A stretch of DNA of 64,000 bases from IMG/VR virus record IMGVR_UViG_3300046786_000613; one strand, written 5' to 3'. Shown piece after piece: positions 2,486 to 62,797 of this stretch. The position numbers were made by a program, and so were the translations under genes. The stretch is from an uncultured virus (IMG/VR IMGVR_UViG_3300046786_000613). Taxonomy: Duplodnaviria > Heunggongvirae > Uroviricota > Caudoviricetes. The stretch's first letter is position 1; each line of letters begins with the position of its first letter. The notes beneath the pieces are model-generated. The model did no database searches. It saw only the letters and a program-made list of their open reading frames with translations, and was not told where the DNA came from.

Positions 2486-2503
2486 CTATAAATTTATCAT
2501 CAA

Positions 2504-3356: not shown

Positions 3357-3398
3357 TTCTTTACATTTTTATTCATTAAATGTGGCATTTTTTACCCC

Positions 3399-36925: not shown

Positions 36926-36926
36926 T

Positions 36927-37865: not shown

Positions 37866-37874
37866 AGTTAAGTA

Positions 37875-38327: not shown

Positions 38328-38332
38328 TTTAA

Positions 38333-40365: not shown

Positions 40366-40866
40366 CTAAAAGTTTTTAGTTTTTGATAAGTAGCCATTTA
40401 GAGTTAACCAATGCTCACTTTCAAGAAAAGTATCAAGATAAGATTCAAGACCAACACCATAATTCTTTTGAAATATGTAAGCAATGTAACTTACATTGAC
40501 TAAAGAACCTGCCGAAGTTATTGCTCCGACTGCTTGAGATTCTTTATCGGAAAATCCTCCCCATCCTCCCCATTTAGCATCGTAAATCAGTTGTGCTGAA
40601 GTATTTGCTTTTGCAGTTGAAATTGTTACTTTATTAGGGTTGGCTTTGTAGAATAAATCACTTAAAACTTGACTTTTTGTTACATCTTCTTTTACCTCGT
40701 CTGCCTCTCTGTCATTTTTATCTTTGGTAATTCCTAAACCATTTAAAATTGGCTTAATGATACCAAAATAGGCAACACCCAAAACTAATACGGCAACAAC
40801 ACCATAAACAATATATTGTGTCTTTTGACCTGTTTCCGCTTTTACGCTAATGTTTGGTTGATTCAT
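40366..40866 (-). CDS. Membrane protein with annexin-repeat-like domain
   Basis: AQLIYDAKWG..SDKESQAV...IAYIFQKNYGVGLESYL. Confidence 0.5.
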   Translation of the reverse strand: MNQPNISVKAETGQKTQYIVYGVVAVLVLGVAYFGIIKPILNGLGITKDKNDREADEVKEDVTKSQVLSDLFYKANPNKVTISTAKANTSAQLIYDAKWGGWGGFSDKESQAVGAITSAGSLVNVSYIAYIFQKNYGVGLESYLDTFLESEHWLTLNGYLSKTKNF

Positions 40867-42864: not shown

Positions 42865-43226
42865 TTTTTCATTATTAATGCGATTCCTACTAAAACAAAA
42901 CCTCCAAAAATCATCATTTTTGCAAGACTGATTTGTTCGGACTCACTATCTTTAATAGCGGAATTTCCTGTTGCGTTAGAGAAATTTTCTTTTTTCTCTG
43001 CCTTATGTTTTGAGCATTCGCAAACGCTCTTGATAAGGTCTTTGTCGGGGTGAATCTCTGCTAATTCTTTTAAGCCTTTTTCACCATTTTTGTTAACATA
43101 GTCTTTCAACTGACTCTCAAGTTCATCGGGACTTTGAGGTCTACTATACCCTTGTTTGCTTATTAATTCATAAGCATCCTTTGGACAAGTATTGGCATAG
43201 TATTCGTAAAGTGTTATCTGTTTCAT
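42861..43226 (-). CDS. Membrane virion protein
   Basis: LAEIHPDKDLI, FSNATG, C-terminal TM. Confidence 0.65.
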   Translation of the reverse strand: MKQITLYEYYANTCPKDAYELISKQGYSRPQSPDELESQLKDYVNKNGEKGLKELAEIHPDKDLIKSVCECSKHKAEKKENFSNATGNSAIKDSESEQISLAKMMIFGGFVLVGIALIMKK

Positions 43227-43354: not shown

Positions 43355-44098
43355 TTATCTACCACGCAATGCTCGTAGAGCCTTGCTTGATAAAACAACT
43401 TTATCCGACTTAACTATGTTAGGATTACCATAACCTGCAACTGCACGTTGACCCGTAAGAGTACGAGCGATAGATGAAGTTTCAGCAGGGTAGAAGTAAA
43501 TCTTAGCAGTCGCACTTGCCAACAAACGGCTCAATACTACTGAAGTAAATCCATCAATTTTGAATGTGAATTTAACTGCAATAATAGTTGATTGTTGCTG
43601 ATAAGGGTCAATGGTAGGTACAAGAGTCTTTTGACTTTCGTTACCATTAACGTCTTGTTGGATAAGTGTCAAAGTTTCAAGAACTTGGTTAGCGGTAGAT
43701 GACTGCAAATATGTTAACCCAACTGTGAACGGTTTGTTCATAGATTGGTACAAAAATTGCCCGTAGGTAATTCCACTAATACCCATAGTAATTGAGATGG
43801 CTGCGGAGTTTTGATAGTTTGGCGATGTGTATGCCAAAGTATTATACGCACCCAAAATAGTTACAGGGTATGCAGTTGCGGTGTTAGTGTTTGCGATAAC
43901 CACGATGTATGGTTGAGATGTAGGAGCGGATGCACCCATATCGGTGTCACCATCTGCTGAATACATATCATCATCACCATAGAAACCATCAAACTCATCA
44001 TCACCTGCGAATGATAACTCGTCATCGAAACCTCCATAATTGAAGAAGTTTTCGTTTGCCTCGTCTTGTGCTTGTGCAAAATAATCACGAAGATTCAT
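43355..44098 (-). CDS. Candidate major capsid protein (beta-rich, jelly-roll-sized) with acidic propeptide
   Basis: Soluble beta-rich ~190-aa body; own promoter and terminator; next to packaging ATPase; paralogue at 24942. Confidence 0.6.
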   Translation of the reverse strand: MNLRDYFAQAQDEANENFFNYGGFDDELSFAGDDEFDGFYGDDDMYSADGDTDMGASAPTSQPYIVVIANTNTATAYPVTILGAYNTLAYTSPNYQNSAAISITMGISGITYGQFLYQSMNKPFTVGLTYLQSSTANQVLETLTLIQQDVNGNESQKTLVPTIDPYQQQSTIIAVKFTFKIDGFTSVVLSRLLASATAKIYFYPAETSSIARTLTGQRAVAGYGNPNIVKSDKVVLSSKALRALRGR

Positions 44099-44504: not shown

Positions 44505-45311
44505 TTATTTCAGATACATCTGAATAAGTTCTTTTTTGACGTATGCAGTCGCAGTTGCGACATTATAAACCTTTTGACCTTTACTATTTGTGTGGTTCAA
44601 AAGAGGTTTTACTTTGGTTCGGTGATTTAAAGCAATGTATTCATCAATTGCTTCGTGAATCATTTTGTCTGAAAAAGTTCCGTAAATTTTCTCGTGGTCA
44701 CAATCGAAAGTCACATAGAACCTTGAGTTACCACCAAAGTATTGTTTGTTTACAAGAATTTCGCAAATCTTAAATGCTTCCCATTTATCCTCAAACTTTT
44801 TCTTATGTCGGTCAACGCTATCCGTGTTCTTATGAAAACGAAGCCAATTGATGTTCTGCCAAATTTTTGTAGTAATCCTACCAATTGATTGATAGTGCAT
44901 TATAATGTCAAGACTTGTGTGTCGGTTGGTACATATTGCTCCTACAAGGTCATTGCTCAAATAGTCACCAACGTATTTGTTGATGTCTTCAATCAAAAGC
45001 AAACCTCCCTTGTAAACGTGAAGGATATGCCATAAAGCATTCGCAACGTCACTCAAAGTCATTTTAGTCCCATCGTCATTGTAAGGTCGAACCCTACGGC
45101 ATTCAATCTTTGGGTGATAGGTAAATAACTCTACGTCACTTAATTTAATTGCCTTAACTTCCTCAAACTCATCGTTTACATCCAAAATCAAGGCTCTTCT
45201 TGGCTTTACATTTAAACCGCCTTTTATGTATTGATTAATTACTGAAAGGGTAGTGTAGGTTTTACCAATTCCTTTTTTCCCTACCGCTACTCCTAATAAC
45301 GCTTCTCTCAT
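44505..45311 (-). CDS. FtsK/HerA-superfamily (A32/P9-like) genome-packaging ATPase
   Basis: Walker A GKKGIGKT, Walker B LLLIED, NRH arginine finger followed by IIMHYQS; 268 aa. Confidence 0.8.
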   Translation of the reverse strand: MREALLGVAVGKKGIGKTYTTLSVINQYIKGGLNVKPRRALILDVNDEFEEVKAIKLSDVELFTYHPKIECRRVRPYNDDGTKMTLSDVANALWHILHVYKGGLLLIEDINKYVGDYLSNDLVGAICTNRHTSLDIIMHYQSIGRITTKIWQNINWLRFHKNTDSVDRHKKKFEDKWEAFKICEILVNKQYFGGNSRFYVTFDCDHEKIYGTFSDKMIHEAIDEYIALNHRTKVKPLLNHTNSKGQKVYNVATATAYVKKELIQMYLK

Positions 45312-46108
45312 AACTGAATATCAAATTTGTTTTCTACTCTTATTAATCCGTGTGCAACGCCTCCAATCATTAAGGCACTATCTCTGATGTCTTTAAAGTT
45401 ATTGTAATGGAAAATAACCTTTTGCTTTGAAACTTCATCACTTTGTGAAGACGAATTTATCACTTTTGATGCAATATCGTTTCGGACATAAGCGTAATGG
45501 TGCATCTCAATCTCTTCACGCTCGTAAATACGGGAATAACCTGCCTTAACTTTTCTTGTAGGGTCTAAAATTACAGGGTAGTCTGAACTGAAATATCCAA
45601 ACTCGGTTTCCTTCTTAATCTTGTAGAACAGAGGCGCATAGTATTCTTCTTTTGGATAAAGACGATAAATTGGTTCTTTGTAGTAAGTGGACATCTTACA
45701 AAATGAAGTGTCGTAATCACCAAGTTCAAAATCATCTTTGGCAAACTTGAACTCTTTTGGGTCATACAACTCATCACAATCCAAAGTCATCATTACATCA
45801 CAACCATTAGCACGGCAAATATCCAAACCTATGTTTCTTTTCTTAATTTCATTTTCTTGCCCATTCTGCCAACGTAACGAACCATCTTCATTAGTCTGAA
45901 GTTGTGGCTCATACTTGTAAAGAAAATCAATCAGACCTGCTCTTTCATACATCCGTAATTTCTCTTCAAGATTTGGGTTTTCATTACCAAAATTGCTTGT
46001 AGTCTGATAAACTACATTGATATGGTTAACCATTGGTCGTAAGTTTCGTAGGCTAAAGAATAACATCTCTTCACCATCGAAGATATTGTAGGTAACTCCT
46101 AACTTCAT
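45308..46108 (-). CDS. GT-A fold glycosyltransferase
   Basis: YNIFDGEE...KRNIGL...LDCDELY...MHHYAYVR. Confidence 0.75.
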   Translation of the reverse strand: MKLGVTYNIFDGEEMLFFSLRNLRPMVNHINVVYQTTSNFGNENPNLEEKLRMYERAGLIDFLYKYEPQLQTNEDGSLRWQNGQENEIKKRNIGLDICRANGCDVMMTLDCDELYDPKEFKFAKDDFELGDYDTSFCKMSTYYKEPIYRLYPKEEYYAPLFYKIKKETEFGYFSSDYPVILDPTRKVKAGYSRIYEREEIEMHHYAYVRNDIASKVINSSSQSDEVSKQKVIFHYNNFKDIRDSALMIGGVAHGLIRVENKFDIQL

Positions 46109-46947
46109 AGTTTTCGTTTAAAAAAGATTATTGCCTGTCGGTCATTGTATGTAAAATTTACATCTTCACCCAACATATTGACATCTTTGAACGTCATAGA
46201 ATGGTCTTGAGGCAATCTTATGTCAAATTCCCAATTTCTTTTAAGGTCATTTACGTTTTCCAAGTCATTGAATCCAAATCCGTAGTCATAAATTTCTTCG
46301 GGTTTAAAATCAAATTGAATAAATTCATCAAAGAAATAATGTCGGTCTGTGAATAGGTCAAAACCTGTATCGAAAGTCCATAAAAAGTCACGAGGGAACA
46401 TTTTGCTATAAAATACATCTTCAATAGCGAAAATACCATCCTTCTTTAACAGGTCTTTGTAATTGAGTAATGCCCACGCTTGATGATAAGGGTGGTGACT
46501 CGCATCGTCTAAAATAATATCGAAATCGTCACCCCATTTGTTTTTTACAACGTGAAGCGTCTTATCGGTACACGCATCTGCTTCAAGCAAATGGATTCTT
46601 GGTTTGTCTTTGCACAACTCAACGGCATTGACTCCCATATTGTGCCATTCAAAAGAAATGTCAACTCCATAAATTTCTGCGTTTGGAAAGTAATCGTGCC
46701 ACATTAACAATGAATGCCCACGAAATACTCCAATTTCCAAAACCTTTTTCACACTATGCCTTAAATCGTGAAATTCTTCGGCATAGTGCTTATGGTAATT
46801 GTGATAGCCAAGTTCTGTAAAGACTTTTTGACCTTTCAATTTGTCGTAATACCAATAATGTGTCACAGGATTCAATTTGTCCATAGTGTAAAGGTGTTCC
46901 CGATACATCTTTTCTTGAAAGTCTGTGAAAAATTGGTAAATAGACAT
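46105..46947 (-). CDS. Class I SAM methyltransferase (sugar O-MTase-like)
   Basis: VLEIGVFRGHSL.MW..YFPNA.IYGVDI...FDIILDDASH...IED. Confidence 0.85.
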   Translation of the reverse strand: MSIYQFFTDFQEKMYREHLYTMDKLNPVTHYWYYDKLKGQKVFTELGYHNYHKHYAEEFHDLRHSVKKVLEIGVFRGHSLLMWHDYFPNAEIYGVDISFEWHNMGVNAVELCKDKPRIHLLEADACTDKTLHVVKNKWGDDFDIILDDASHHPYHQAWALLNYKDLLKKDGIFAIEDVFYSKMFPRDFLWTFDTGFDLFTDRHYFFDEFIQFDFKPEEIYDYGFGFNDLENVNDLKRNWEFDIRLPQDHSMTFKDVNMLGEDVNFTYNDRQAIIFFKRKL

Positions 46948-47561
46948 TAGTTCGTGTATTTAGCGTTTTCAGCGATTTCTTTTGCTTTGTCTTCGTATGC
47001 TGAAAGAAGTCTTTTCAAAGGCTTGTAAATCTGAATTAGGAACTCTTCGTTTTTTTGTTGCTCTTTTGAACATTGATTCCACCAAGAAAGTTCGTAGGTC
47101 ATTTTGTGAAGAATGTCTTTGAACTCTGCTTTGTTTTCATTCAAGCAAACTTGAACTTTATCAAATACTTCTTTTGAGTTCTCTCTTGCCTCTTTTGATT
47201 CTTTTTCAAATTGTGGCATAAACACATTTTTGAAGTGTGTTTCTTTGTCATCAATCAGTTTTTGCTGAATACGCAATTTACCTTGATAGTCCAATACTTT
47301 CACTTGAGTTTCTGCCCAATCTGTAAGCGTATTGATATTTGCTTCAATTGACTCTTTTGTTTGATTTTGTATCAATTTTTGACACACTTTTCCTAAAATG
47401 TCTTGTTTTACGAGGTTGAACTCCAACGCTTGATTCAAGGTGTTGTAATACAATTTATCGTGTTCAATGACTTTCTCGAAGTCTGTCTTCGGCATAATAC
47501 GCTTTGACAAGATTTCTGTTTCTTTTTTCTCTCTTTCTGAAAGGTTTACTACTTTTCCCAT
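46947..47561 (-). CDS. Helical hypothetical protein
   Basis: Coupled ORF. Confidence 0.6.
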   Translation of the reverse strand: MGKVVNLSEREKKETEILSKRIMPKTDFEKVIEHDKLYYNTLNQALEFNLVKQDILGKVCQKLIQNQTKESIEANINTLTDWAETQVKVLDYQGKLRIQQKLIDDKETHFKNVFMPQFEKESKEARENSKEVFDKVQVCLNENKAEFKDILHKMTYELSWWNQCSKEQQKNEEFLIQIYKPLKRLLSAYEDKAKEIAENAKYTN

Positions 47562-47567
47562 TTTTAT

Positions 47568-47852
47568 TTATTTTTTTAATCCTTTTGCAATTCCTTTAAC
47601 TCCAAACATTTGAGCGGTTTCAAGATGCTCCATAGCGATTTTAAAACATCTTGTTTGTTCCATATACTCATCTCCCGATAATATTGATTCAATCCTTTCT
47701 TGCTCTAAAAAGTCAATAGCATCTGCCATCATTCTTTTAAATTTTCCAATCTTATCATCTGCTGAAGGATTGAAGTCAATGTGACATCGTTTTTCACCAA
47801 GTGTCATTGGTCTTGAAGACATAGCGATTTCTTCGGGTGTTAATTTTGACAT
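47568..47852 (-). CDS. Acb2/Tad1-like cyclic-nucleotide sponge candidate
   Basis: 94-aa helical hairpin; FNPS..IGKFK..ADAID...RCFKIAMEHLETAQMFGVKGIA. Confidence 0.6.
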   Translation of the reverse strand: MSKLTPEEIAMSSRPMTLGEKRCHIDFNPSADDKIGKFKRMMADAIDFLEQERIESILSGDEYMEQTRCFKIAMEHLETAQMFGVKGIAKGLKK

Positions 47853-47875
47853 ATTTATTTGTTTTTTTTGGTTTG

Positions 47876-48628
47876 TTATTCTGCTTTTTCGTATTTAATG
47901 AAGTTGAAGTGTCGACCCCAATCTTCTCTGTTCCAATGGAAACATAAAAGGTCTGTGTGAACGTAATTAGGCACGTTTCCTTTTCTCAAGTCCTCTGCGA
48001 AGTAGGTATCGGGTGGATGTCCATTTGGATTATCTTTCTCACAACGGAACTCAAAACGATTCATCACATATCGCTTCATTAAGCAACATCCGATTCCTGC
48101 AATGAAAGTTTCCTTTAAAGTTCCATCCATCCACCAATGGTGAAAGTTTCCTAATTCATAGTGGAAAACATACTCATTGAAGTGAAGTGATTTTGTATCT
48201 TGATTACGAATACAAGGGTTTCTCCAACTACCATCGAAAATTTGGTACATACCACTTACTACGGGTTTTCTGCACCAAAGCAATTGCTCAATAATGTCGG
48301 GTTGTGGGAAAATATCACTTTCAAGGTGAAACAAGTAGTCGGCATCGCTTTCTAAAAAGTATCTGCGAATTTGATTGTGACTATCTGCTAACTTTTCCAT
48401 CACAGAATAACCCGTGTAATCTTTCCAAAAGGTTTTGACTTTGTATTTGTCACGAATCATCAAAGCATTCTTGTTGGTCTTTGAGTTGTCTGCTACGAAT
48501 ATCTCAATGTTTGATTTTGGGTAGGTAAATCCGAATACATTTTGCATAAAAGCATCAAGACAATAATTCTTCGCATCGTATGTAGGAATGCCAATTAGGA
48601 TTTTAGGTAGAACGAATTTCTTCTCCAT
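47876..48628 (-). CDS. GT2-family glycosyltransferase
   Basis: ILIGIPTY...ADNS...HLESDI...GIGCCLM...PDTYF. Confidence 0.8.
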   Translation of the reverse strand: MEKKFVLPKILIGIPTYDAKNYCLDAFMQNVFGFTYPKSNIEIFVADNSKTNKNALMIRDKYKVKTFWKDYTGYSVMEKLADSHNQIRRYFLESDADYLFHLESDIFPQPDIIEQLLWCRKPVVSGMYQIFDGSWRNPCIRNQDTKSLHFNEYVFHYELGNFHHWWMDGTLKETFIAGIGCCLMKRYVMNRFEFRCEKDNPNGHPPDTYFAEDLRKGNVPNYVHTDLLCFHWNREDWGRHFNFIKYEKAE

Positions 48629-51187: not shown

Positions 51188-52498
51188 TTATCCTCGAATC
51201 AAATCATCAATACCCGAAACTCCACCGCCTTCTTCAAAGAATCCAAATCGTTTTTTTGGTGCTTCTGCTTGGTTTTGTCGCATTTTACCCAAAGATATGA
51301 CATCTCGGTCACGTTGTGCTAAAAGAGTTCTTCCATCGTCTGAATTAACAATATAATCACCTGTTATTTCGTGTATTTCTTTGATTACTCCTGTGTTTTC
51401 TTCTCCGTTGTCATCAAAAACAATTTCTTGACCTACTCTTCCACCATCTTCAAATTTACCTTTACGATTATTCAAAGGCTTTTCATAAGATTCACGCTTG
51501 TTATGTCTTGCTCGGTCTAAATGCCAAGAACGACCCGTATTCACGTTACCACCTCTTGCGTATTTTTTCTTTTTCGAGGCTTTGCGTTTGGCAATTTTGG
51601 CTTTGATTGAATCTTTTACTGAATTACCAATTCTGACTTCTGTTCCAAATCCAATTTTTTGAGGTCTTGCACGACCAATTTTGTAGCCAATATATGCACC
51701 TACCATACCACTTAAAATTGTACCGCCAATCCCGTAATTATTGGAAAAAACATACATTTCACCATCGTGATGAATCACATCAAGGTCATAAGATAAAGAA
51801 CGCTTCCAAGCACCTTCATAATCTTTGGAAACCCAAGAAGGAATTTCATCTCCATAACCCATATCTTCAAGGTATGTAGTTAAATCTGCTCTACGCTCGG
51901 CTTCTTCGTCTGCTAATTCTTCGGCTTGACGTTCTGCTTCGTCTTCATCCATATCGGGATTCTCGTAAAGAATATCCTCTCGGATTCGGTCAACATCTTC
52001 ACCATAAATAACTCTTTCAGTCACATCATCAACGTAAATATGGTTTGACCAAAAATCGCTACCTAATTCGCCAAGTTGGCTTTCATATTCGTGTACAATG
52101 TCTGTTTCATCGTTACCATCTACAACAAACATCAAACTATCTGCAAGTGCTTGGTAATCATCACTACCTGTATCACCTGCACGTTCAACTAATACGGCTA
52201 CAGGAATACCTCTGTCTTCTGCAACTTCAGCAATTTCGTAAAGTTGTTGAAAATCTTGCTCACCCATATACTCTGAAGCCAAAGTAGAAGGAATGCCTTC
52301 GTAATCGTGAACTGCCCATTCTTCACGGACTTCACCATCTATTGACTTATATTTTTCGGTCAATTCATCAAGCATATCTTGAATAGCACCCATCAAATCA
52401 GATGCTTCTAAATAGTCTGCTAAATCAAACCATTTGCCCTCTAAACGACCATTATTGTAGTCTGACAAACTTGCTACATAAATTCTCATATCTTCCAT
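51188..52498 (-). CDS. ardA: ArdA antirestriction domain fused to further modules
   Basis: RIYVASLSDYNNGRLEGKWFD...EEWAVHDYEG...DYE; acidic; C-terminal modules separated by GG motifs. Confidence 0.85.
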   Translation of the reverse strand: MEDMRIYVASLSDYNNGRLEGKWFDLADYLEASDLMGAIQDMLDELTEKYKSIDGEVREEWAVHDYEGIPSTLASEYMGEQDFQQLYEIAEVAEDRGIPVAVLVERAGDTGSDDYQALADSLMFVVDGNDETDIVHEYESQLGELGSDFWSNHIYVDDVTERVIYGEDVDRIREDILYENPDMDEDEAERQAEELADEEAERRADLTTYLEDMGYGDEIPSWVSKDYEGAWKRSLSYDLDVIHHDGEMYVFSNNYGIGGTILSGMVGAYIGYKIGRARPQKIGFGTEVRIGNSVKDSIKAKIAKRKASKKKKYARGGNVNTGRSWHLDRARHNKRESYEKPLNNRKGKFEDGGRVGQEIVFDDNGEENTGVIKEIHEITGDYIVNSDDGRTLLAQRDRDVISLGKMRQNQAEAPKKRFGFFEEGGGVSGIDDLIRG

Positions 52499-52510
52499 AA
52501 CTGCCTGTTA

Positions 52511-54565
52511 TTATTGTCCTCTACGATTACGTAACATTGAACCTACTCCACCGCCTTTAGCGTGTGATTTTTTAGTGGTCTTGAATCTACTTAATGGCAT
52601 CCATTGAGAAATTTTGCCATCTCCATATTCATCTATTCTGATAACTTTTACTCTTCCACCAAAAGAAGGGTCATAATTCACAACTTTTAATTTAACTCCT
52701 GTATTTGCAGTTAAAATATCTCCTTCTTTTATCGCACCACCTTTGCCAAAGGCTTTTGAGCGTATTCCTTTGTCAAGGTTAACTACATAGTTTTTATTGT
52801 AACCATCTCTAACTTGAACTTCGTCAAAACCAAATTGTCCGTAATCTCTAACTATTTCATCGCCAACTCTCAATCCGTGTTCGGTCATTCCGCCTTTAGC
52901 AAAAGAATCAGTAAATTCATATTGGTAGCCATTATAATGCAAAGCATATCCACTAAAACCACCTTTTCTACGAACATATCTTTCTTTGGTTTTGCCACCA
53001 TCTTCAGTTACAATGATTTCTCTACCATTACCAATGACTTTCAATAAAATTGCACCGCTTGGTTTTAAAGTAGAATTACTTTGACCACCCATCAATTCTT
53101 TTCCGATTTGACCACCTGTTTTATATTCTTCTTCTTCTTTTTTAATTAATCCCTCATTAACAAGTTCATCAGTTAAATCAGAGTAACTAAAGTCAAGACC
53201 TTGAGTTGTCATTGAATAATAACCACCTTTGTTTTCCATCAACCAATCCATAACTTCATCTTTGTCAAAAACGTAGTCATCTCTTTTCAAATCATCTAAA
53301 AAGTATTCATAACTTTCGTATTCGGCTTCATTTTGCATTTCGTAATACAAGTCTTCGATATTTTCAAATCCTAATGGGTAATCATCAGTTGTGTCAATCC
53401 ATTCTTGAGCAGGTTCTCCAAATACATAAGCATTTTGACCATTATATCCTGCGTTTTCAACTACGATATTTTCGGGATAGTTTTCTTCAAAATAACGAAT
53501 AGCAACTTTGTCTAAAAAGTCACCTCCGTAATCCGTGTAAGCAAAAGAAATAACTACATTGTCACCAAGTGAATTTCCTTCAATGCCTAATTTTTCTCTT
53601 AACTCGTCTTTCAAGTCTTCGGATGCAAAAGCATCGTCAACATACTCTAATCTCGCATCTTCACCGAACATACGACCACCTTTTCCATAAGAACTAACTC
53701 CACCGCCTTTTCCAAATTGACTTGGATTAACAGAACTTGAAGATAAATTTGATTGTTGGATGTTCATTACTTGAGTAGCACCATCTGTCATACCACCAAA
53801 GGCATATTTTGACAATAACTTGTCAATATCTGAACGCAATTTAATCAAGAACTCTTTTTGTGAATCCTTGTCAAATTTACCAAGTGACGTAGCAATGCTT
53901 GTAAGTAATTCTGAAGTATCAATAACTACACGCTTAACAATAGTTTTTGTCTTTTCAGCAACTTTTTTCTCAACTTTCGCTTCGACTGCCTCTTTTTTCG
54001 CTTTTGGCGTTTTAAGAGTCTTGTCTTTTGCTACTTCTGCTTTTGCCTCTTTTTCGGCTTTATCTTCAACCGCTTCGATTTGTTTTTCAATCTTTTCAGC
54101 AACATCTTTAGTAGCACTTTCAATTACCGCATCCGCAGTTTTTTCTGATGTTCCTTCGATGAGGTCGCCTTTTTTATCAAGTTTCTGAACACGCTTTTTA
54201 TTTTCTGCACTTGCTTGTTCTGCTTTACGTCTTCCTTCTTGTGCTTTTGTTCTTAATGCACGATATTGCTCAATAATGCTCTCGCATTCTTCTTCGGTTT
54301 TTCCCGTTTTGCGTTTTATTTCGGCTTTTGCCGTTTCAATATCGTCTGCCGACTTTTTTGTTTTAGATGCCGTTGATTTTTTAGCCGTAGCAGAAGGTTT
54401 ACGACCTCTTTTTGATTTTGGCTTCTCTCCTTCTAATTCTTTAATTTCAGCAGAGAACTTATCAACTACTGCTTGGAACTTGGCACGAACTTCAGCACTT
54501 AAAGATTGGTCTTGTGCGTTTTTTCTATATTTTGCCAATTGTTCATCGGTTGGTCTTTTTTCCAT
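52511..54565 (-). CDS. Multidomain (polyvalent-like) protein with seven aromatic-xx-GG motifs
   Basis: Basic coiled N-terminus, acidic domain, several ~50-aa SH3-like modules. Confidence 0.65.
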   Translation of the reverse strand: MEKRPTDEQLAKYRKNAQDQSLSAEVRAKFQAVVDKFSAEIKELEGEKPKSKRGRKPSATAKKSTASKTKKSADDIETAKAEIKRKTGKTEEECESIIEQYRALRTKAQEGRRKAEQASAENKKRVQKLDKKGDLIEGTSEKTADAVIESATKDVAEKIEKQIEAVEDKAEKEAKAEVAKDKTLKTPKAKKEAVEAKVEKKVAEKTKTIVKRVVIDTSELLTSIATSLGKFDKDSQKEFLIKLRSDIDKLLSKYAFGGMTDGATQVMNIQQSNLSSSSVNPSQFGKGGGVSSYGKGGRMFGEDARLEYVDDAFASEDLKDELREKLGIEGNSLGDNVVISFAYTDYGGDFLDKVAIRYFEENYPENIVVENAGYNGQNAYVFGEPAQEWIDTTDDYPLGFENIEDLYYEMQNEAEYESYEYFLDDLKRDDYVFDKDEVMDWLMENKGGYYSMTTQGLDFSYSDLTDELVNEGLIKKEEEEYKTGGQIGKELMGGQSNSTLKPSGAILLKVIGNGREIIVTEDGGKTKERYVRRKGGFSGYALHYNGYQYEFTDSFAKGGMTEHGLRVGDEIVRDYGQFGFDEVQVRDGYNKNYVVNLDKGIRSKAFGKGGAIKEGDILTANTGVKLKVVNYDPSFGGRVKVIRIDEYGDGKISQWMPLSRFKTTKKSHAKGGGVGSMLRNRRGQ

Positions 54566-54592
54566 TTTTTATTTTTTGATATAAATGTGTAA

Positions 54593-54600
54593 CAAATTTA
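54593..54600 (-). promoter_or_regulatory. Bacteroidota -7 element
   Basis: TAAATTTG. Confidence 0.65.
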
Positions 54601-54609
54601 GGTTTTTTC

Positions 54610-57600
54610 CTATTCAAATTCCATTAATTCTCGCAAGTCTTCAATAATTCTCATAGTTTTCTTTTTCTCACGAGGACTTTCAAACTCACTTAACTCAAGT
54701 AATTCATCTATAATTCTTTGCGTTGGAGAAATAACTTGAATTTCATCGGATTTTTCTACTGCAACTTCTACAGGTGAAATTTCCGCTTGTTTTTGCTCTT
54801 TTACCTTTTTCTGCACTTTTTCAAGTTGTTCTTCGTCTGAATTTTTGAAAACAGATAGCATTGCATTTCCTAAATAATCACTATTTGGAGTTGAAAAAGA
54901 TGATACCCTTGCCGAAATAGATGAGCCTAAACGAATTTCTTCGCTATTCAACGCTTCAATACGTCTAATTACCTCTTGAACCAATTCATCCATAACTTGT
55001 GGGTCATCGAATTGTTTTGCCTCAAGAGCAAGTGTATTGATTTTGGTTTTTTGAGTATTAATTAAGTTCTCAACATCTTGGTAACTATTGATACCTAATG
55101 GTTGCAGTTTTTTCTCTTCAGTTGCTTTGAACTCTGCTAATGTCATCGGTAAATCTATGTTATAGAATTTACGATAGTAAGTTGCAAACAAACCGCCTCT
55201 TTCAGTATTTTTCCAATTGTCTACCAAAGCAGTCCAAGAATCGGGTAAGCCGTTAAATTCAATTGTTTTATACCTTAAGGCATCAAAATTATTAATAGTT
55301 GTTTTCAACATTTGTGGCAAAGAATAAATCTCATCCGTACTTTGTGGTGGAACTATTTCAGAAGGATTTGCGGTAACGTAGTATTTAACATACCTGTTGT
55401 AATCATTTTCGATTCCTAACGATTCCAATTTTGGATAAAGAATAGTTCCAATGTATTCCGAAATATCTTTGATGTTTTCGTTTCGTTCCTTGTTGCTATA
55501 AACAAAAGGTTCGGGGTATTTTGTAGGTTCTACTTTTTTCTTCTCACCTGTTGTTTTCTCAACAACAACGATGTTTCTATTTACAATGTTCAATTCCTCT
55601 AATTCATCCACATCAATAGAAATAGGAATCATATTTTCTTTGAAATTACCATTGGCAACAGACATTATTGAATTAGGATTCTCTCGATAAAAATCTTTTA
55701 AAAGAATAGCCAATTGTTTTTTTGTTTCCTCATCGAAATCATCGAAATCGGTTCCTACATCATAAAAACTTGGCTTTTCTAATTCTGATAATTTCAATCT
55801 TCTTACCGCTTCTTCTATGCTTCTATTATCCTCGTTATTATTTCGATATTGATAACTAATGTGATAATAAAAAGAAGAAAGTACATTATTTCCGCTACTA
55901 TTTGTAACAACTTCTGCAATTCCTTTTTTGCGACCTTTTTTGGTGTCAAACTCTACTTCATCACCTTCAACGATAGGAATAGTTTTAGCAGGAATAAGTT
56001 CACGCCAATTTTTTGAATATCCAAGTGGATAGCCAATCTTTTGTTCTTTCATCACCTTAACCATCAATTGAATTAATTCTTCGGGCGTATAATTGAACAA
56101 TTTATCAAATTGCATTCTCCATAAAGGATTGCTTACATTCGGAAAAACAAGATTATATGGTGAATTTCTGTCAAAATATGAAAAGAATCTTTCGCTTACT
56201 AAACTATAGATGTTCCTATTACCTTCTAACATACTTTCTTTAGGAAAACCTCTACTTGTTAAGTATTGACTTTCTGAAGTATTGTAAAGTTCATTTAAAA
56301 AATTTGCATAGTTCTCTTGTTTCAATAAAGGTTTGTCAATCAAATCGGGTCTGATTTGAGAAATTACATAGTGCATTCTGAATCTAAAATCTTCTTTGAT
56401 ATTATCATTAAGAGGCATATATTTTATCTCAAGGGACTTTTTGAAAATACTTTCAATAGCAAGATAACTACTCAAAATTTCACCTTCTTTCGTTTTTTCC
56501 TCTTCTATTTTATCAATACGATATTCTGCCTCAAGTTTTGCAATTGCTTGTGGGTCTGTGAGTAGTTCGTATTTTAATTCAGCAGGATTGAAAGCGGTTG
56601 TATCTAACTCATTTGTATTGCCGTTTTTAGTCCAAATTTGATTGATTCGTTCTGTTTTATCCTCAAGTTTTTGGAACATAAAGATGTCAATACAATCAGC
56701 CATTAATGGAGTCACAATACGGACATTTGCAAACGCATTTCCTTGTCGCCAAATACGACCTTCAACTTGAACCATATCAGTTGGGTTAAAGTCAAGGAAA
56801 CAATTGTATAATGCTGAAGCATAATCCTGTAAGTTAATTCCTTCTTTGATTGATTCTGAACCAATCAATACTTTCACACGCTTACTATCTTCAAGTTGGG
56901 TGTATTTTCCTGTTTCGGGATTCAAAACACGACCCAAAAAGGCATCTGCTACTCTTTGTTTATTGTCATAACGCTTCTTACCAATGTAATTTCCATCACC
57001 ACGAATAATACCAATCTCATCAAGTTCAAAACCAACAACTTCCACTAAATAGTCACGCAACAATTCAAATGCCTTTGTTCCAAAGTTCATATAAATTACT
57101 TGACCACTCATTTTAGGACTTTCCTCGCTATTAGCGTGATATTGTTTAATTGCTTTGATACATTCCATCACATAAAGCAATTTTGGAGATTGTTCTACAT
57201 ACATTCTACCTGTAGGTTCTTGTTTAAAGCCACTACACTTGAATAAGTATGGGTTCAATGCAATTTGACGACCCCACATAAGGCATTGTAATGCTTTTGC
57301 GGTGGCTTTTGCTTTTTCACCTTCTTTCGTTCCATCCGCTAAATTATCTGCATCTTCAATGTCAATTTCTGCTGAACCTTCTTCGCCTTCTTGAGTCGAT
57401 TTAGGTTTCTTTTCAACATATTTTCCGTATGAAGTTGTATTTCTACTTGCCTCATTGCATAATTCCTCGTATGTTAATTCGCCTTGAGCGTACATCCTTA
57501 CTTTACCCCATAATTCAAGTTGTATGTCAGACATACGCAAAGTCGTTGATATGAAGTTTTCTTTTGCAAATTCAACGATTTTACCATCAATCATTTGGCG

Positions 57601-60384
57601 TTTTAAAGGTAACACCCATTTATTTGGTCTAATTACCGCTTTATCTTCTTCCTCACGGCTTGATTTATCAAATACACGATAAACATACTTCTGCAAAGAA
57701 ATAAGGTTTGTCCATCCAATGAATTTGTTTCTCTTAACAATTGTCAAGTCAGTTCTGAAGTCGTCTGAATATTCAATCTTGGCATAAGTATCAAAGAAAT
57801 CTTTCAAAATACCCATTTCTGCATCGTAAAGCATTTCGTAGTTCAAAAACGAAAGCATAGTGTAGATTTGTAATGGACTATTTGTGAATGGTGTTGCTGA
57901 AAGTAAAATGGTATTACCCATTTTGTTATAAAACTGAACATAACGAGTTAAAAACCAAAGTTTTTCGGCTCTTGATGAAGCCTCTTTTCCACCCGAAGTT
58001 TCACGGATTTTATTGTATGGATTAAATTCACGTTGAATGCGGATTTTACCTGTTTTTTTATCTGCTTTTCCTGCTTGAATTTTTTTAGGCTCTGAAACTA
58101 CTTTGGTAAATAAATTGTTGAAGTTATGTGCTTCATCAACTACAATCATATCAAAGTTTGTTGAATCTGAATTAATTATAATTGGCTCAACAAATTTTTT
58201 CTTTTTTTCACCAACTGCACCGCCTTCACCAAAACCTCCTAAATCGTCATCATCAGAAAAGTCTTCATTATTTGGTTCAATGTTCGCAGGTGGCTCATTA
58301 TTGTATTCATCTGATAAATCTTCATCAAACTCAATGCTTTCTTCGTTAAATAACCCTTTACTATGCGCTTTTACAAATCCTTCAACTATAGGCTCACTAC
58401 GAACATCACCGCCCATTTCCATAATTGAAACGGCTTCTTCTACCCAAGTGTAGTCAAGGTTTTCTTTTGAAAATTGAAATGATTCTGTTGCCTCGTATGT
58501 ACATAGGTTAATTCCATCTACCGCATTGTTTCCAAGTGTGTTGTAAATACCTGCACCATTATAAAACATATTCAAACGGCTATTATTTTTTGTAGGGTCA
58601 AATTCAGAACCTAACCCACGCAAAATTTCTTGACCAAACTGAAAGTAAACTTGATTTGGAACAATAACTAAAGGTCTTTTTGCAGTACCCAAGTCTAATG
58701 CTTGTTTCATCGCAAAAATTGAACAGAAAGTTTTTCCTAATCCTACTCCATAAGCCAATCCAACACTACCTCTCGTAAGGTAATAGCGTACCGCACGAAG
58801 ATTAGATTCTTTGAGAACAAAAAGATGTCGGTTATCTAAATACTTTTTGTATGTAAAACCAATAGGAACTTCGTCTAAAACAGGTTCAACGTAAGAATTA
58901 TAAATTGAGTTCCAAATGTATTCTACTTTCAATTGGTCTTCGGGTGTTAAACCTTCAGCCAAAAATTGTGAAAACAAACGCTCACCAACTTTTCTTGCAT
59001 CATCTTGAACCCTTGCCCATTTTTCCTCACCATTCTTTTCTTTGGTAAAAGGATTTGAAATAGGCTTTAAGTAATAATCTTTAAGTTCTGAAATGCCAAG
59101 AGTTGTATTTGACCATTGAATACCATATTCAGCAGATTGAATACCTCTACCTGCGTCTTTACACCACAAAATAAAACCTTCGTAAAGGCTAATTACTTTT
59201 TTATTGATGAAATTTAATCTTGCACTACCACCTTCTTCTCCAATTAAGTCCTCTACTCGCTCTCCTTTTTTGAAAGAAGTATAAACTTGGAAATTTTGTT
59301 CAATGGTTGCTTTATCTTTTGGTGAAACAATTGAATTGATTTTGATGTCCGATGATAAAGAAGAAATTGGAAGCAAACTTAAACGCATAGACTTGTCTTC
59401 TGAACGAACACTCAATCTATTTTTATTTGTTTGTTGCCAAATTGGCTCAAGTGTTGAAACGTGAAGGTCATAAATTGATTGACCAAATCGCTTGATTATT
59501 TCATCCTTTCTGTTTGTAAGACTTGCCCATTTTTTCCAAATGTTTCCACTCTTATAAATTACTTTTGGTTGAAGACGTTCTCCAATTGGTGAGGTTGGGT
59601 CAAAAAATAACGCACCTCTTTTCATTAATTCTAAAATGTCAACCGCTTGAGCAGGGTATGAAGACCCGTATTTTTCAGACCAATCTCCACCAAGTTTTTT
59701 TCTGTTTTTATTTTGAAGATAGATGAAGAAGGCTCTTTTATCAAATGAAGAAATTTTGCTATTGTAAAGTTCATCAACTTCATCAAATGTCCACATTGCG
59801 GATTCAATATCTTCATTCTTTTCTGCGGTTTTAAGTTCTGCCAATGCCAATTTTGATGCCTCAAGTTTTTCTTGAGCATTTTTTAGTTGGGAATCAGTTA
59901 AACTTTCAATATCAACAATAGGTGATGCTACGCTAACTTGAGGGTCATCACCATAAATTTGTGAATAATCGGGTGCTAACAATTCATCGAAATTCTCAAA
60001 ATTCGCAAACTCATTTGAGCCTTCATAGTCTTGCAAATCAATTTCTTGTTCATTCAAATATTTACTACCTGCATCTACTAATTCAAGTCTGAATTTGCTT
60101 TCATTTCCTTGTTTCAATGTAATTTTACCATTGTCAACTAAAAAAGCATTGGAAAAATCCCAAGAGGAATCTGCTCTACTTGATGCAAAAATATTCCATT
60201 CATCGTTTTTCTCAACGCCTTGAATTGTTATCGGTGAATCATAGAAATAATAATTGTAACCTCTATCATCTACCAACCAATCACCTCTTGTTTCATCGTT
60301 TGCATTCAAAAAAACAATTGGATAGCCAAGTCCTTCAAAAAACTCTGTTATATACTTTACGTTGGATTTATCAAATCTTGCCAT
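54610..60384 (-). CDS. DarB-like SNF2-family helicase
   Basis: YGVGLGKT, VVDEAHNF, LSATP, EGINLQ, QVEGRIWRQGN; 1924 aa. Confidence 0.85.
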   Translation of the reverse strand: MARFDKSNVKYITEFFEGLGYPIVFLNANDETRGDWLVDDRGYNYYFYDSPITIQGVEKNDEWNIFASSRADSSWDFSNAFLVDNGKITLKQGNESKFRLELVDAGSKYLNEQEIDLQDYEGSNEFANFENFDELLAPDYSQIYGDDPQVSVASPIVDIESLTDSQLKNAQEKLEASKLALAELKTAEKNEDIESAMWTFDEVDELYNSKISSFDKRAFFIYLQNKNRKKLGGDWSEKYGSSYPAQAVDILELMKRGALFFDPTSPIGERLQPKVIYKSGNIWKKWASLTNRKDEIIKRFGQSIYDLHVSTLEPIWQQTNKNRLSVRSEDKSMRLSLLPISSLSSDIKINSIVSPKDKATIEQNFQVYTSFKKGERVEDLIGEEGGSARLNFINKKVISLYEGFILWCKDAGRGIQSAEYGIQWSNTTLGISELKDYYLKPISNPFTKEKNGEEKWARVQDDARKVGERLFSQFLAEGLTPEDQLKVEYIWNSIYNSYVEPVLDEVPIGFTYKKYLDNRHLFVLKESNLRAVRYYLTRGSVGLAYGVGLGKTFCSIFAMKQALDLGTAKRPLVIVPNQVYFQFGQEILRGLGSEFDPTKNNSRLNMFYNGAGIYNTLGNNAVDGINLCTYEATESFQFSKENLDYTWVEEAVSIMEMGGDVRSEPIVEGFVKAHSKGLFNEESIEFDEDLSDEYNNEPPANIEPNNEDFSDDDDLGGFGEGGAVGEKKKKFVEPIIINSDSTNFDMIVVDEAHNFNNLFTKVVSEPKKIQAGKADKKTGKIRIQREFNPYNKIRETSGGKEASSRAEKLWFLTRYVQFYNKMGNTILLSATPFTNSPLQIYTMLSFLNYEMLYDAEMGILKDFFDTYAKIEYSDDFRTDLTIVKRNKFIGWTNLISLQKYVYRVFDKSSREEEDKAVIRPNKWVLPLKRQMIDGKIVEFAKENFISTTLRMSDIQLELWGKVRMYAQGELTYEELCNEASRNTTSYGKYVEKKPKSTQEGEEGSAEIDIEDADNLADGTKEGEKAKATAKALQCLMWGRQIALNPYLFKCSGFKQEPTGRMYVEQSPKLLYVMECIKAIKQYHANSEESPKMSGQVIYMNFGTKAFELLRDYLVEVVGFELDEIGIIRGDGNYIGKKRYDNKQRVADAFLGRVLNPETGKYTQLEDSKRVKVLIGSESIKEGINLQDYASALYNCFLDFNPTDMVQVEGRIWRQGNAFANVRIVTPLMADCIDIFMFQKLEDKTERINQIWTKNGNTNELDTTAFNPAELKYELLTDPQAIAKLEAEYRIDKIEEEKTKEGEILSSYLAIESIFKKSLEIKYMPLNDNIKEDFRFRMHYVISQIRPDLIDKPLLKQENYANFLNELYNTSESQYLTSRGFPKESMLEGNRNIYSLVSERFFSYFDRNSPYNLVFPNVSNPLWRMQFDKLFNYTPEELIQLMVKVMKEQKIGYPLGYSKNWRELIPAKTIPIVEGDEVEFDTKKGRKKGIAEVVTNSSGNNVLSSFYYHISYQYRNNNEDNRSIEEAVRRLKLSELEKPSFYDVGTDFDDFDEETKKQLAILLKDFYRENPNSIMSVANGNFKENMIPISIDVDELEELNIVNRNIVVVEKTTGEKKKVEPTKYPEPFVYSNKERNENIKDISEYIGTILYPKLESLGIENDYNRYVKYYVTANPSEIVPPQSTDEIYSLPQMLKTTINNFDALRYKTIEFNGLPDSWTALVDNWKNTERGGLFATYYRKFYNIDLPMTLAEFKATEEKKLQPLGINSYQDVENLINTQKTKINTLALEAKQFDDPQVMDELVQEVIRRIEALNSEEIRLGSSISARVSSFSTPNSDYLGNAMLSVFKNSDEEQLEKVQKKVKEQKQAEISPVEVAVEKSDEIQVISPTQRIIDELLELSEFESPREKKKTMRIIEDLRELMEFE

Positions 60385-60386
60385 AA

Positions 60387-60653
60387 TTAATCAGTCAAAT
60401 AGTTGGGGTTTAACAAATTTTCTTTCATCACCAATGCTTCGGAAATATCCATATTGGTATTGAAAAATGCTTGAATACAAAAATTCTCAATGTCTTTATA
60501 TCCTTCTTCAGTTTGTTTGTAAGCACACAAATATGGTGTTGCTTTCATATTGCAATACTCTAAATTTTCTTTAATGAGCATTTTAATTTCAATCAAGAGC
60601 AAATCTTTGCTCATTTTTTTCTCTTCTTTCATAGATTGGTTTTTATCTACCAC
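60387..60653 (-). CDS. Hypothetical protein
   Basis: Operonic ORF. Confidence 0.55.
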   Translation of the reverse strand: MVDKNQSMKEEKKMSKDLLLIEIKMLIKENLEYCNMKATPYLCAYKQTEEGYKDIENFCIQAFFNTNMDISEALVMKENLLNPNYLTD

Positions 60654-60925
60654 AATAATTTATCTGCATAGTAACCATCGCTACCTTTTACATTTCTATC
60701 TTTCGTGTGCCTTATTTTGTAAAGTCTTCTACGCTCATCAGCATATTTTTTTCCTTTGGTCTTAATGTATGTTGGGTAATCTGCATAACCTAAAGCACCA
60801 ACTGAAGCAACTTTTTCTCCATTTTTAAACACATCTATTTTCTTTCCTTTAACGGAACTTTTCTTTACGACTACGCCTAATTTTTTGGCTTGTTCCCTTG
60901 TGTATTTTGTAATTGAATAAGCCAT
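60647..60925 (-). CDS. Small basic protein (DUF5754-like)
   Basis: KKIDVFKNG...GALGYADY..Y...RRRLYKIRH...GYYADKLLW. Confidence 0.6.
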   Translation of the reverse strand: MAYSITKYTREQAKKLGVVVKKSSVKGKKIDVFKNGEKVASVGALGYADYPTYIKTKGKKYADERRRLYKIRHTKDRNVKGSDGYYADKLLW

Positions 60926-60928
60926 TGA

Positions 60929-62797
60929 TTAATATTTAGTCAAAGTGTAAATCAACGTATAATTTGCTTCAGATGTAATACCTTCTTTAACCACTAAAAA
61001 CTTTTTTGAATTGGTAAAAATCATCATTTGATTTTGTGCCATAGAACCTTGATTCACAGATATTGAATTTTGGAATTTTTGTAGTTTTTCCATAGTGCTA
61101 AACTCACAAACTCCTAAAGCAATTCCTTTCTTTTCAGTTTTATAAAGTAATTGACACAAATTATCTGTTAAAGGGTTTGATTGTGGGTAAACGTGAATGA
61201 TTGCATCCATTCTCTTCATTTCAAATTCATTGTAAAGAAAACGTCTTTTGCCACGATTAACTATTTCGGAAATTTCTTTTTCTATTTGAGCAAATTGATT
61301 TTTTTCATCAAAACTTACCATAATTGCACTTAAATAATTCGGTGCGTAAGACAAAATGTTTCCGACTCCAATATTGCTCAAATATAACTTTTCGATTCTG
61401 TTTGAAGTATTGTAATATTCAAATAGTAAACCATAAATTTTTTGAATAATTGATGGCGACAATTCGTTTGCAATATTGTTCCCTTTAAAAGTAGAAAGTT
61501 TATTGCTCAAAGATGAATCAACAGAAAATGTATCATCTATTTTGAGTAAAAGTTTTACAATTTTTTTATCGTGTTCACCTAAATTCAAAGATTGATATGG
61601 CTTAATTGCACCGCCATTTCCGTATTTTTCCTCATCAAAACCTACTATGTTTATGATTTCATTAGGAACAAGCATATAAGAACCTGTATTAGCAAATTCC
61701 AAAGCAGTTGCCGTTCCATCGTTCAACAAAAAAGTGAACTTGTACACTTTACCTTTTGGAAAAACCGATTCAGTAAGATACTTACCATCTTTTCTTCTGA
61801 TAATTCCATTGTAGTCTTCTGTAAATACAATATGTACTATTGCTCTTTGCTCACCTGTGTAGCCACCTACATTGTATTTTTTATTGCTTTTTCTATGGCT
61901 TTTTTGCTTTTGAAAATCTTCAATAGCATCAGATACCTTTTTGCTACTTTCCATTTTATCAAGTTCGATGTAGTAATTCTCATCTTCATCTAAATGGTCT
62001 TCAGCAATAGCCTTTGCAACTTCTTCATCGGAAACTCCTTCTTTCTTGAATTTTTCAATAGTGTCTTTGTGTTCCAATTCGTGTTCCGTTCCTTTTTTTA
62101 CTTGGTCTTTTTTCCACATTTGATACCAATCAAAGTCACGAACATCACCGCCACCTTCAAATTCTTCTTCTTCATCTAAACGATAAAAGTCAAGTTCAGA
62201 GGCATCGTATGTTTTTTCTGTGTCATCTGCGAACTTCAAATGAAATTTACGACCATAGTCTTTAATTATCAATCCCATTTTGTTTTCACTCTTCACACGA
62301 GCGGAATCACCAATTTCTGCTTTTGACCATTCGATATTTCCACCACCTTCGTAACTATCAGATAAAAACTCCTTGCGAAAATATCTACGCAATTCATCCA
62401 TACCTTTTAAACGATTTGAGTATTGAGCATCTTGAGTAGAATACACTCCTTTTTCAAATTCAACTACGTTACCATCATCCATCCATTCTTTGAAAGAAGA
62501 TTCTTGTTCTTCATCAAGAATTTTACCTCCTGTGGCATATTCGTATTTTTTTCCTGTGACATTATCACAATCAATTTGAACACCATTTCCGTTTGCTGAA
62601 TTTATCTCTGATGCGATTTCGCAAGTTGTCATTTTTTTTCCTTGAAACTCGAACTTTTTATCGGATGCCATATTGCGTTTGTTAATCACGCCTTCGCCTC
62701 CTTCTAATTCTACTTTTTGACCTGTAGATTTTACGACCATCGGAATACCGCCTTCTTTATGACTTTTTCCTTTAGTTATACCCCCTGTTGCAGACAT
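60929..62797 (-). CDS. Multidomain protein: GxSHxxGG module, DUF5661-like domain, degenerate MTase-like C-terminus
   Basis: GKSHKEGGIP..ELEGGE; KGTEHELEH...IAEDHLDEDENYY; LSNIGVGNILSYAP. Confidence 0.6.
   Translation of the reverse strand: MSATGGITKGKSHKEGGIPMVVKSTGQKVELEGGEGVINKRNMASDKKFEFQGKKMTTCEIASEINSANGNGVQIDCDNVTGKKYEYATGGKILDEEQESSFKEWMDDGNVVEFEKGVYSTQDAQYSNRLKGMDELRRYFRKEFLSDSYEGGGNIEWSKAEIGDSARVKSENKMGLIIKDYGRKFHLKFADDTEKTYDASELDFYRLDEEEEFEGGGDVRDFDWYQMWKKDQVKKGTEHELEHKDTIEKFKKEGVSDEEVAKAIAEDHLDEDENYYIELDKMESSKKVSDAIEDFQKQKSHRKSNKKYNVGGYTGEQRAIVHIVFTEDYNGIIRRKDGKYLTESVFPKGKVYKFTFLLNDGTATALEFANTGSYMLVPNEIINIVGFDEEKYGNGGAIKPYQSLNLGEHDKKIVKLLLKIDDTFSVDSSLSNKLSTFKGNNIANELSPSIIQKIYGLLFEYYNTSNRIEKLYLSNIGVGNILSYAPNYLSAIMVSFDEKNQFAQIEKEISEIVNRGKRRFLYNEFEMKRMDAIIHVYPQSNPLTDNLCQLLYKTEKKGIALGVCEFSTMEKLQKFQNSISVNQGSMAQNQMMIFTNSKKFLVVKEGITSEANYTLIYTLTKY

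Follow-up and report, generated by a model that had tools for sequence, protein, structure and literature searches.

Four large, nearly adjacent minus-strand genes in a 64,000-nucleotide stretch of DNA from an uncultured virus (IMG/VR record IMGVR_UViG_3300046786_000613; the whole stretch is referred to as the window) encode proteins that share a heptapeptide tag built around a Gly-Gly pair, and the question this locus raises is what the tag is for. An initial annotation had described it as [FYH]xxGGx[VIMT] and had read the four proteins as anti-defence polyproteins in which the tag is either a cleavage site of the adenovirus or African swine fever virus (ASFV) type or a signal for loading into the virion. 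All 17 heptamers listed there are present in the four open reading frames (3666 residues). In 2000 shuffles of these residues the average was 0.39 copies and the highest count 4, and chance is rejected as their origin. The remaining predicted proteins of the 69,762-base contig hold four copies of the same pattern in 18,279 residues. Two of these sit in further tagged proteins outside the region first described, one encoded at 118-1065 of the window and one beyond the window at 67267-69114 of the contig.

Since the pattern had been drawn from the four proteins themselves, the fair test lies with their relatives. A scan with the packaging ATPase candidate of the window yielded 65 viral loci with 1324 non-redundant proteins, in which the original pattern occurs 151 times compared with 22.6 times in shuffles; 111 of these copies fall in 29 tag-rich proteins, which were selected for at least three tags. 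A slightly wider pattern gives 196 copies in the same 29 proteins versus 4.8 expected. In 120 further proteins, found via a domain rather than via the tag, 963 copies are present versus 35.5 expected. The family consensus is [FYM]-[AEK]-[KDNE]-G-G-x-[ILVTM], so that the first pattern needs correction in that Met is allowed at the first position and Ala or Glu followed by Lys or Asp are preferred. Proteins of the 120-member set carry up to 17 tags, both internally and at the C-terminus, and 18 of 167 spacings are only 6-10 residues long, i.e., the tags stand in tandem. Linker character is only a little more pronounced around the tags, whose flanks contain 62.8% disorder-promoting residues versus 58.3% for the whole proteins. 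The tag is genuine, occurs throughout the family and marks where swappable modules join and end.

Split at their tags, 40 proteins yield 219 segments that form 24 families and 135 singletons; the modules have a median length of 77 residues and 51 of 213 are basic. A given segment recurs from tag to tag in differing company across proteins, and residues 488-554 of the 684-residue protein share 64% identity, again tag to tag, with a module in locus L012. ArdA opens the window protein, occupies the middle in L005, is preceded in L011 by a short leader, and stands last in L022 as well as in five more proteins, in which it begins five residues behind a tag. The proposal that domains are shuffled at motif boundaries is borne out: with tags masked and two capsid or membrane proteins excluded, a tag is no more than five residues away in both proteins at 167 of 420 internal alignment ends, compared with 11.4 (maximum 25) under the null, although the mask may help alignments to stop at tags. 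When one end was counted per family and side, 29.5 of 63 ends lay within ten residues of a tag versus 4.5. Note that 44 of 273 alignments continue through a tag in both proteins. Beyond context controls, the first Gly codon of the tag is GGT in 79% versus 58% and the Ala codon is GCT in 70% versus 32% of cases, which fits spread by duplication and recombination. An origin of the Gly codons from Shine-Dalgarno or internal start sequences was rejected because the first Gly is encoded by GGA less often (9% versus 34%).

The beads-on-a-string build with effectors of the polyvalent type also holds, with ArdA and a DarB-like SNF2 helicase in the window and ART-PolyVal, Zeta-toxin kinase, RelA/SpoT, DUF2958 and N6-methylase modules in tagged proteins of relatives. 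The label "anti-defence" is backed by family matches for ArdA and the helicase only; most modules belong to no family, and for these unnamed ones we infer such a role. That tags stand at joints or C-termini is true of most copies and fails for the single one in the helicase, which is not conserved. It lies at residue 718 in an acidic insert of the first ATPase lobe, between Walker A (546) and the DEAH motif (750), and was rejected as a domain joint. Directly behind its first tag the ArdA protein carries a hydrophobic helix that may be a membrane anchor and that is one of only three hydrophobic segments among 53 tag-rich proteins. Membrane anchoring was hence rejected as a general loading route. 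In locus L091 (2799-4081 and 14167-14430) three small genes start with one shared hydrophobic helix, similar to that of the ArdA protein, followed by a tag and then by unrelated domains; these are free-standing forms of the cassette. For the 622-residue protein the Atlas model is poor (predicted template modelling score 0.30).

The most telling tags are those at the very ends of proteins. One that the initial annotation had overlooked closes a basic protein encoded upstream of a small polymerase-like gene. Among 76 homologues of this basic protein 74 end in the tag, 65 with two and nine with three residues after the Gly-Gly pair, and the two misses are fragments; all 70 full-length homologues carry it C-terminally, with a conserved Ile, Val or Leu behind the pair. 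The neighbouring 232-residue protein, presumably PolB-like, holds D-x-N/D-x-AYW, L-S-x-LG and W-x-TDC motifs that are invariant in five of five sequences, and neither a PDB nor an NCBIfam match was found for it. The pair is common to 6 of 11 records and, together with the inverted terminal repeats of the complete relative G002, possibly serves protein-primed end patching. Terminal tags are likewise the rule in 120 polyproteins of the family defined by the GSH domain (see below), 87 of which end within five residues of the last Gly-Gly, although these sequences are related and not independent. A small membrane protein carries the tag ahead of its membrane helix in 21 of 29 cases. A cut after the Gly-Gly of a terminal or tandem tag would release no domain, and loading therefore fits these tags better than cleavage does. 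Of the two alternatives named at the outset, loading fares better, and cleavage of the adenovirus type is not supported.

Our preferred reading, to which we give about even chances on the evidence of the sequences, is that the tag is a reusable short docking signal. It would bring proteins into the virion of a likely tailless, membrane-containing virus and let them accompany the DNA. The virion location of the cargo, the role of the basic protein as a terminal protein, the existence of a reader and delivery into the cell are what we infer within this reading. The best candidate for a reader or anchor of the tag is a small domain at the start of the 622-residue protein, called the GSH domain here, whose His13, Glu30 and Glu35 are invariant in 29 of 29 sequences. 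Tag and domain are both present in nine records (G000-G005, G007, G008 and G010:C64, in the last of which the domain was detected in one of two scans) and both absent in three (two G006 elements and G009), while the zinc protease described below occurs in all 12. The fragment G010:C21 (21.6 kb, four tags, no GSH domain on it) was excluded from this count, and bases 66001 onward and 1-46000 of G005 as well as locus L055 were scanned as separate pieces. This co-occurrence is no more than suggestive. No PDB match and no telling Pfam or PHROG match was obtained for the GSH domain, nor any match in 50,697 annotated phage records. A lead from the Atlas connects it with the crAss cargo protein 1 domain (PF25725; 0.90, 139 shared features) and also with tape measure proteins.

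The crAss lead concerns a protein known from the particle: gp45 of crAss001 is a virion cargo protein, residues 425-552 of which are bound to the portal (PMC10172136). In gp45 we count eight copies of A-x-G-G versus 1.46 expected (1 of 5000 shuffles) as well as a GG-S-H...E-Q-G-E stretch. Among five further crAss C1 proteins, four resemble gp45 in that a Gly-Gly motif stands about 20 residues ahead of the domain. In the lambda tape measure protein gpH, [FY]-A-T-G-G is found at 733 and 778, with F-A-T-G-G at 733.

The proposed mechanism would run as follows. During assembly, a virus-coded reader would bind the two hydrophobic ends of the tag and its Gly-Gly turn, and the best candidate for it is the GSH domain, which is found on one polyprotein in each genome. 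This domain would keep cargo at the packaging vertex much as the similar gp45 domain is held on the portal. If the basic protein encoded at 118-1065 is the terminal protein, the genome end itself would bear a tag. Many copies per protein would confer avidity and keep each module labelled after rearrangement. The DNA of the tag would double as short homology, by which the RecT of the virus could swap tag-module cassettes. Trimming by the zinc protease at or near some tags may follow and would not be required. Loading signals as such have precedents in the capsid-targeting sequence (CTS) of T4 (PMC9026906) and in the N-terminal signal of P1 DarB (PMC9024508).

Several observations weigh against this reading. 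Established loading signals are single and N-terminal, whereas the tag is multi-copy, internal and C-terminal. Cleavage would call for a conserved protease as well as a capsid leader resembling a propeptide, and both exist. All four homologous helicases examined lack the tag and are thus either not loaded or loaded by other means; in the single-protein scan no close relative of the helicase on a viral contig turned up, and one of five records searched had one. The co-occurrence of tag and GSH domain is weak evidence, as the three negatives represent at most two lineages and the domain sits inside a tagged protein, so that loss of one locus removes both. Direct comparison of the GSH and crAss domains gives an hhalign probability of just 1.3% (E 0.04) and a profile score of 4.2 bits, so that homology between them is not established, and the tag is clearly enriched in just three of the five further crAss C1 proteins. 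Finally, the distant polymerase neighbour in G008 is untagged although this record has tags, and the parts of G005 covered by the analysis yielded neither the mini-polymerase nor its partner.

The strongest competitor, possible if somewhat unlikely in our estimation, holds that the tag serves above all as a site of cleavage during maturation: an M48-like zinc protease or the GSH domain would cut the polyproteins in the particle into 50-100-residue modules and basic DNA-condensing peptides and would remove the capsid leader. A suitable enzyme is encoded in the capsid module. Its HExxH..E.AD signature is present in 40 of 40 sequences and the gene in 34 of 35 loci with at least 9 kb downstream of the ATPase. 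The model matches BepA best (Z 9.1, root-mean-square deviation 3.4, 118 residues aligned), followed by Q74D82 (7.1) and Ste24p (6.8). The protein is an M48-like gluzincin candidate with the BepA/Ste24 fold and a putative protease. Small and often basic modules would also suit cleavage. ArdA works alone, and Ste24-type enzymes trim short C-terminal peptides, which leaves terminal tags as possible substrates. The leader of the capsid candidate is flexible and carries a related A-x-G motif, present in 69 of 90 leaders versus 36.7 expected (the 90 being those that could be delimited among 150 capsid homologues), and the same motif marks three other gene families. Furthermore, lambda gpH, with F-A-T-G-G at 733, is cut about 14 kDa from its end, site and catalyst being unknown according to PMC12617516, and the T4 CTS is tag and cut site in one peptide (PMC9026906). 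As the T4 address is itself the cut site, loading and cleavage can both be partly true.

Against cleavage speaks that the protease is kept in the three tag-less records, that cuts at terminal and tandem copies would yield nothing useful, and that one crAss copy, the A-F-G-G with which gp45 range 425-552 begins, lies within the part modelled in mature virions (PMC10172136). A clan CE cysteine protease was found neither by the Pfam scan of 66 window proteins, nor by the PHROG scan of 98 G002 proteins, nor in families present in at least 4 of 11 records, although a very distant one could escape; the conserved genes yielded no Cys-His protease family. The adenain consensus, which we take to be (M/L/I)-x-G-G or (M/L/I)-x-G-x-G, fits none of the 17 window tags and 10 of the 963 tags of homologues. 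A tagged 615-residue protein beyond the window (contig 67267-69114) contains HExxH, as a zincin-like metallopeptidase of the polyvalent kind would, and so does one G003 protein; this is no general feature of tagged proteins. The A-x-G of the capsid leader belongs to a second motif, which has the pattern aromatic-[NSG]-A-[DSTN]-G with F-D/N-G variants and is also present at the tail ends of small membrane proteins and in the tag-less proviruses. Possibly this motif is what the zinc protease really cuts, or else a peptide that docks on the capsid.

Alternatively, the tag could be read at infection, as a handle with which modules are drawn, unfolded, into the cell through an ejection tube or by a membrane transporter of the host. 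That ejected proteins from unrelated kinds of virion (gp45 and gpH) have the same tag would be in line with this, and one tag per module would suit stepwise threading. On the other hand, a translocase partner was not identified, the tagged membrane protein, being anchored, fits less well, and the entry of cargo into the particle is left unexplained. We regard this explanation as improbable. That the tag is only a flexible joint, a peptide with no reader whose DNA is a recombination hot spot, accords with the codon bias, the RecT gene and the breakpoints at tags and is nevertheless highly improbable, given that synonymous codons vary while Gly-Gly and both hydrophobic positions hold and that the basic protein, itself unshuffled, keeps the tag in a fixed place at its end.

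The docking-signal reading can be widened. The tag and the His/Glu domain might together be a portable cargo-sorting device common to virions of unrelated architecture, namely those of an undescribed lineage of large single-jelly-roll viruses of Bacteroidota, the C1 cargo of crAss phages and lambda-like tape measures, a generalization that we consider unlikely. If it were true, the tailless lineage would label its terminal protein, with one address loading genome and effectors, and the His/Glu domain may be the agent that cuts lambda gpH.

What kind of virus carries these genes? Its major capsid protein candidate has 560 homologue clusters at 50% identity. The model is a beta sandwich with jelly rolls as nearest folds (Z 5-6.5, none reaching 8; among them capsid parts of PR772, FLiP, PBCV-1, phiCjT23 and PM2 at Z 5.2-6.2), and non-viral sandwiches score equally high; the capsid role is a candidate assignment based on conservation and gene place. 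Foldseek returned no PDB match at E 0.001 for the capsid or the protease model and only unnamed or C1q-like matches among viral models, and profiles of the zinc protease, capsid, ATPase, mini-polymerase and GSH domain gave no useful PDB sequence match. Homologues of the adjoining ATPase show weak DUF87/Zot Pfam matches (E 0.001-0.09, below cut-off), and the window protein itself has a weak terminase PHROG match (E 1.3e-5). Its HerA/A32 label is in part our assumption, and it has no match in the 50,697 annotated phage records. A membrane-helix-like stretch is present in 23 of 41 minus-strand genes at 17.2-43.3 kb. In G002, a PHROG scan of 98 of the 100 predicted proteins revealed no HK97 capsid, portal, terminase, tail-tube or other head family, and one 159-residue protein matches tail or tape-measure families. 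The ends of the window's contig show no terminal repeat. From the jelly-roll capsid candidate, the HerA/A32-like ATPase and the many membrane proteins we conclude that the virus is likely tailless and membrane-containing, a context that had escaped the initial annotation.

The lineage defined by 24942-45311 of the window, with contigs of up to 102 kb and a binned one of 148 kb, has no counterpart among annotated phage records and may be undescribed so far. Two integrated relatives are flanked by cellular genes in a Parvicellaceae (Bacteroidota) genome, one of them with a tyrosine recombinase (G006:C2 at about 348-399 kb and G006:C1 at about 1,365-1,390 kb; L102, L104, L106 and L107). In G006:C2 the ATPase-helicase block and the capsid block are about 28 kb apart, with other genes between them. 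These chromosomal relatives make Bacteroidota the likely host; the other relatives, stray contigs that were binned with many different phyla, carry little weight in this respect.

Table 1 Features of the window discussed in the text, in order of position.
Feature	Coordinates	Strand	Basis or remark
Basic 315-aa protein upstream of the mini PolB-like gene, terminal-protein candidate	118-1065	plus	Tag (1039-1059) at very end
Mini PolB-like 232-aa protein	1787-2485	plus	Palm-type motifs only
RecT	15269-16324		Pfam scan
Second jelly-roll paralogue	24942-25634	minus	BLAST cluster with capsid candidate
Second-motif sites	36479-39575, 42151-42864, 42861-43226, 43928-44098		
HExxH zinc-protease candidate, M48-like fold, capsid module	40866-41624	minus	Model pLDDT (predicted local distance difference test) 91.8
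Major capsid protein candidate, single jelly roll, flexible acidic leader (about 43928-44098)	43355-44098	minus	Model pLDDT 86.9; leader below 50
Packaging ATPase candidate, HerA/FtsK/A32 type, adjoining the capsid gene	44505-45311	minus	Walker A and B, invariant RH and Q
436-aa tagged polyprotein, 4 tags: ArdA module (1-254), hydrophobic helix and basic stretch, short basic peptide, small beta-type module	51188-52498	minus	Pfam ArdA E 8e-15; segment charge
Tags of 436-aa protein	51716-51736, 51542-51562, 51434-51454, 51218-51238	minus	
Hydrophobic GxxxG-type helix, possible membrane anchor	51677-51721	minus	
684-aa tagged polyprotein, 7 tags	52511-54565	minus	Modules 486-554 and 560-605 recur elsewhere in relatives
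Tags of 684-aa protein	53786-53806, 53696-53716, 53669-53689, 53105-53125, 52883-52903, 52730-52750, 52544-52564	minus	
1924-aa SNF2/DarB-like helicase, 1 tag (58213-58233)	54610-60384	minus	PHROG DarB-like E 4.7e-25
622-aa tagged polyprotein, 5 tags, DUF5661 module	60929-62797	minus	Pfam DUF5661
Tags of 622-aa protein	62519-62539, 62333-62353, 62141-62161, 61856-61876, 61604-61624	minus	
GSH domain, small conserved domain GG-x3-G-x2-H-x2-GGI...E-x2-G-x-E	62555-62797	minus	First 81 residues of 622-aa protein

Some further genes deserve mention. Near the ATPase (window 30522-34052, 45308-48628 and 26073-28325) lie genes for a collagen-like fibre (guanine plus cytosine content 45-50%), a methyltransferase and glycosyltransferase-like proteins, which together suggest a decorated virion surface. 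A protein with an Acb2/Tad1 hairpin domain (window 47568-47852, E 3.4e-7) is an untagged anti-defence candidate. An untagged AAA ATPase and a partner gene form a pair within the cargo cluster of G002-G005 (L073, 15870-19015; L084, 3897-6940). Matches to DUF5754 and DUF5824, which we take to be giant-virus families, were obtained at 60647-60925 of the window and at 67267-69114 of the contig. Tagged proteins also share other C-terminal endings (L110 of G005, 1-3884; L012, L038, L084 and L111): YL-x-MFLGK recurs in three neighbours, several proteins end in H-K/R-N-D, and many close with a basic helical module.

If the docking-signal reading is correct, the proteins that a virus takes along into its host could be told from sequence by a rule, and hundreds of unnamed 50-100-residue modules (135 singleton segments among them) would become candidates for anti-defence effectors. 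A widespread, likely tailless lineage (560 capsid clusters, 65 loci) would then join the tailed phages and plasmids from which polyvalent cargo is known. With crAss001 and lambda in culture, the tag is already open to experiment, and in lambda it bears on the cleavage site and catalyst of gpH (PMC12617516).

How does this system relate to known ones? Cargo signals and polyvalent proteins are already known (PMC9024508, PMC5512222), and we found no description of a multi-copy tag at joints and ends in a likely tailless lineage, or of this lineage, in a literature search that worked from listings and covered subscription papers thinly. For polyvalent proteins, packaging, injection and possibly self-processing have been proposed (Iyer et al. 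2017, PMC5512222). The tagged proteins resemble them as large mosaics with ArdA, SNF2 helicase, ART-PolyVal, ddrB-ParB and, in some cases, HExxH domains, and several conflict-related domains occur here in varying combinations, with ArdA changing its place and DUF2958, Zeta-toxin, ART-PolyVal, RelA/SpoT and methylase modules joining in. Unlike polyvalent proteins, the modules are small and bounded by tags, and the virus that hosts them is likely tailless. The main text of PMC5512222 mentions no repeated joint tag, the words "linker" and "glycine" occurring zero times, while its supplements may bear on the claim. As with the T4 CTS, which is also a cut site, and the P1 DarB signal, a short peptide would admit unrelated, fast-changing proteins to the head; those tailed phages use one N-terminal signal (PMC9026906, PMC9024508), whereas the tag here is found also on a terminal-protein candidate and a membrane protein. 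With crAss001 gp45 the system shares a repeated aromatic-x-A-x-GG between small modules and probably a Bacteroidota host, but crAss001 is tailed and has a portal, and the accessible text of PMC10172136 is silent on repeats. The GG-S/T-H...E-x-G-E domain behind a Gly-Gly motif is a further likeness to crAss C1 proteins.

Processing by the adenovirus protease or ASFV pS273R offers the parallel of a jelly-roll virus with GG-punctuated precursors and short basic peptides between the sites. The register of the tag differs, with one hydrophobic residue three positions before the Gly-Gly pair and another two after it, and the sole conserved protease candidate is an M48-like zincin. Closest in overall build are presumably the vertical single-jelly-roll viruses with an internal membrane (Halopanivirales type), with which the lineage would share a single-jelly-roll capsid protein with paralogues, an adjoining HerA/A32-like ATPase, many small membrane proteins and a linear genome with inverted repeats, the last as seen in G002. 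Unlike those viruses, the lineage described here has larger genomes, with contigs of up to 102 kb, a zinc protease in its capsid module and polyvalent cargo.

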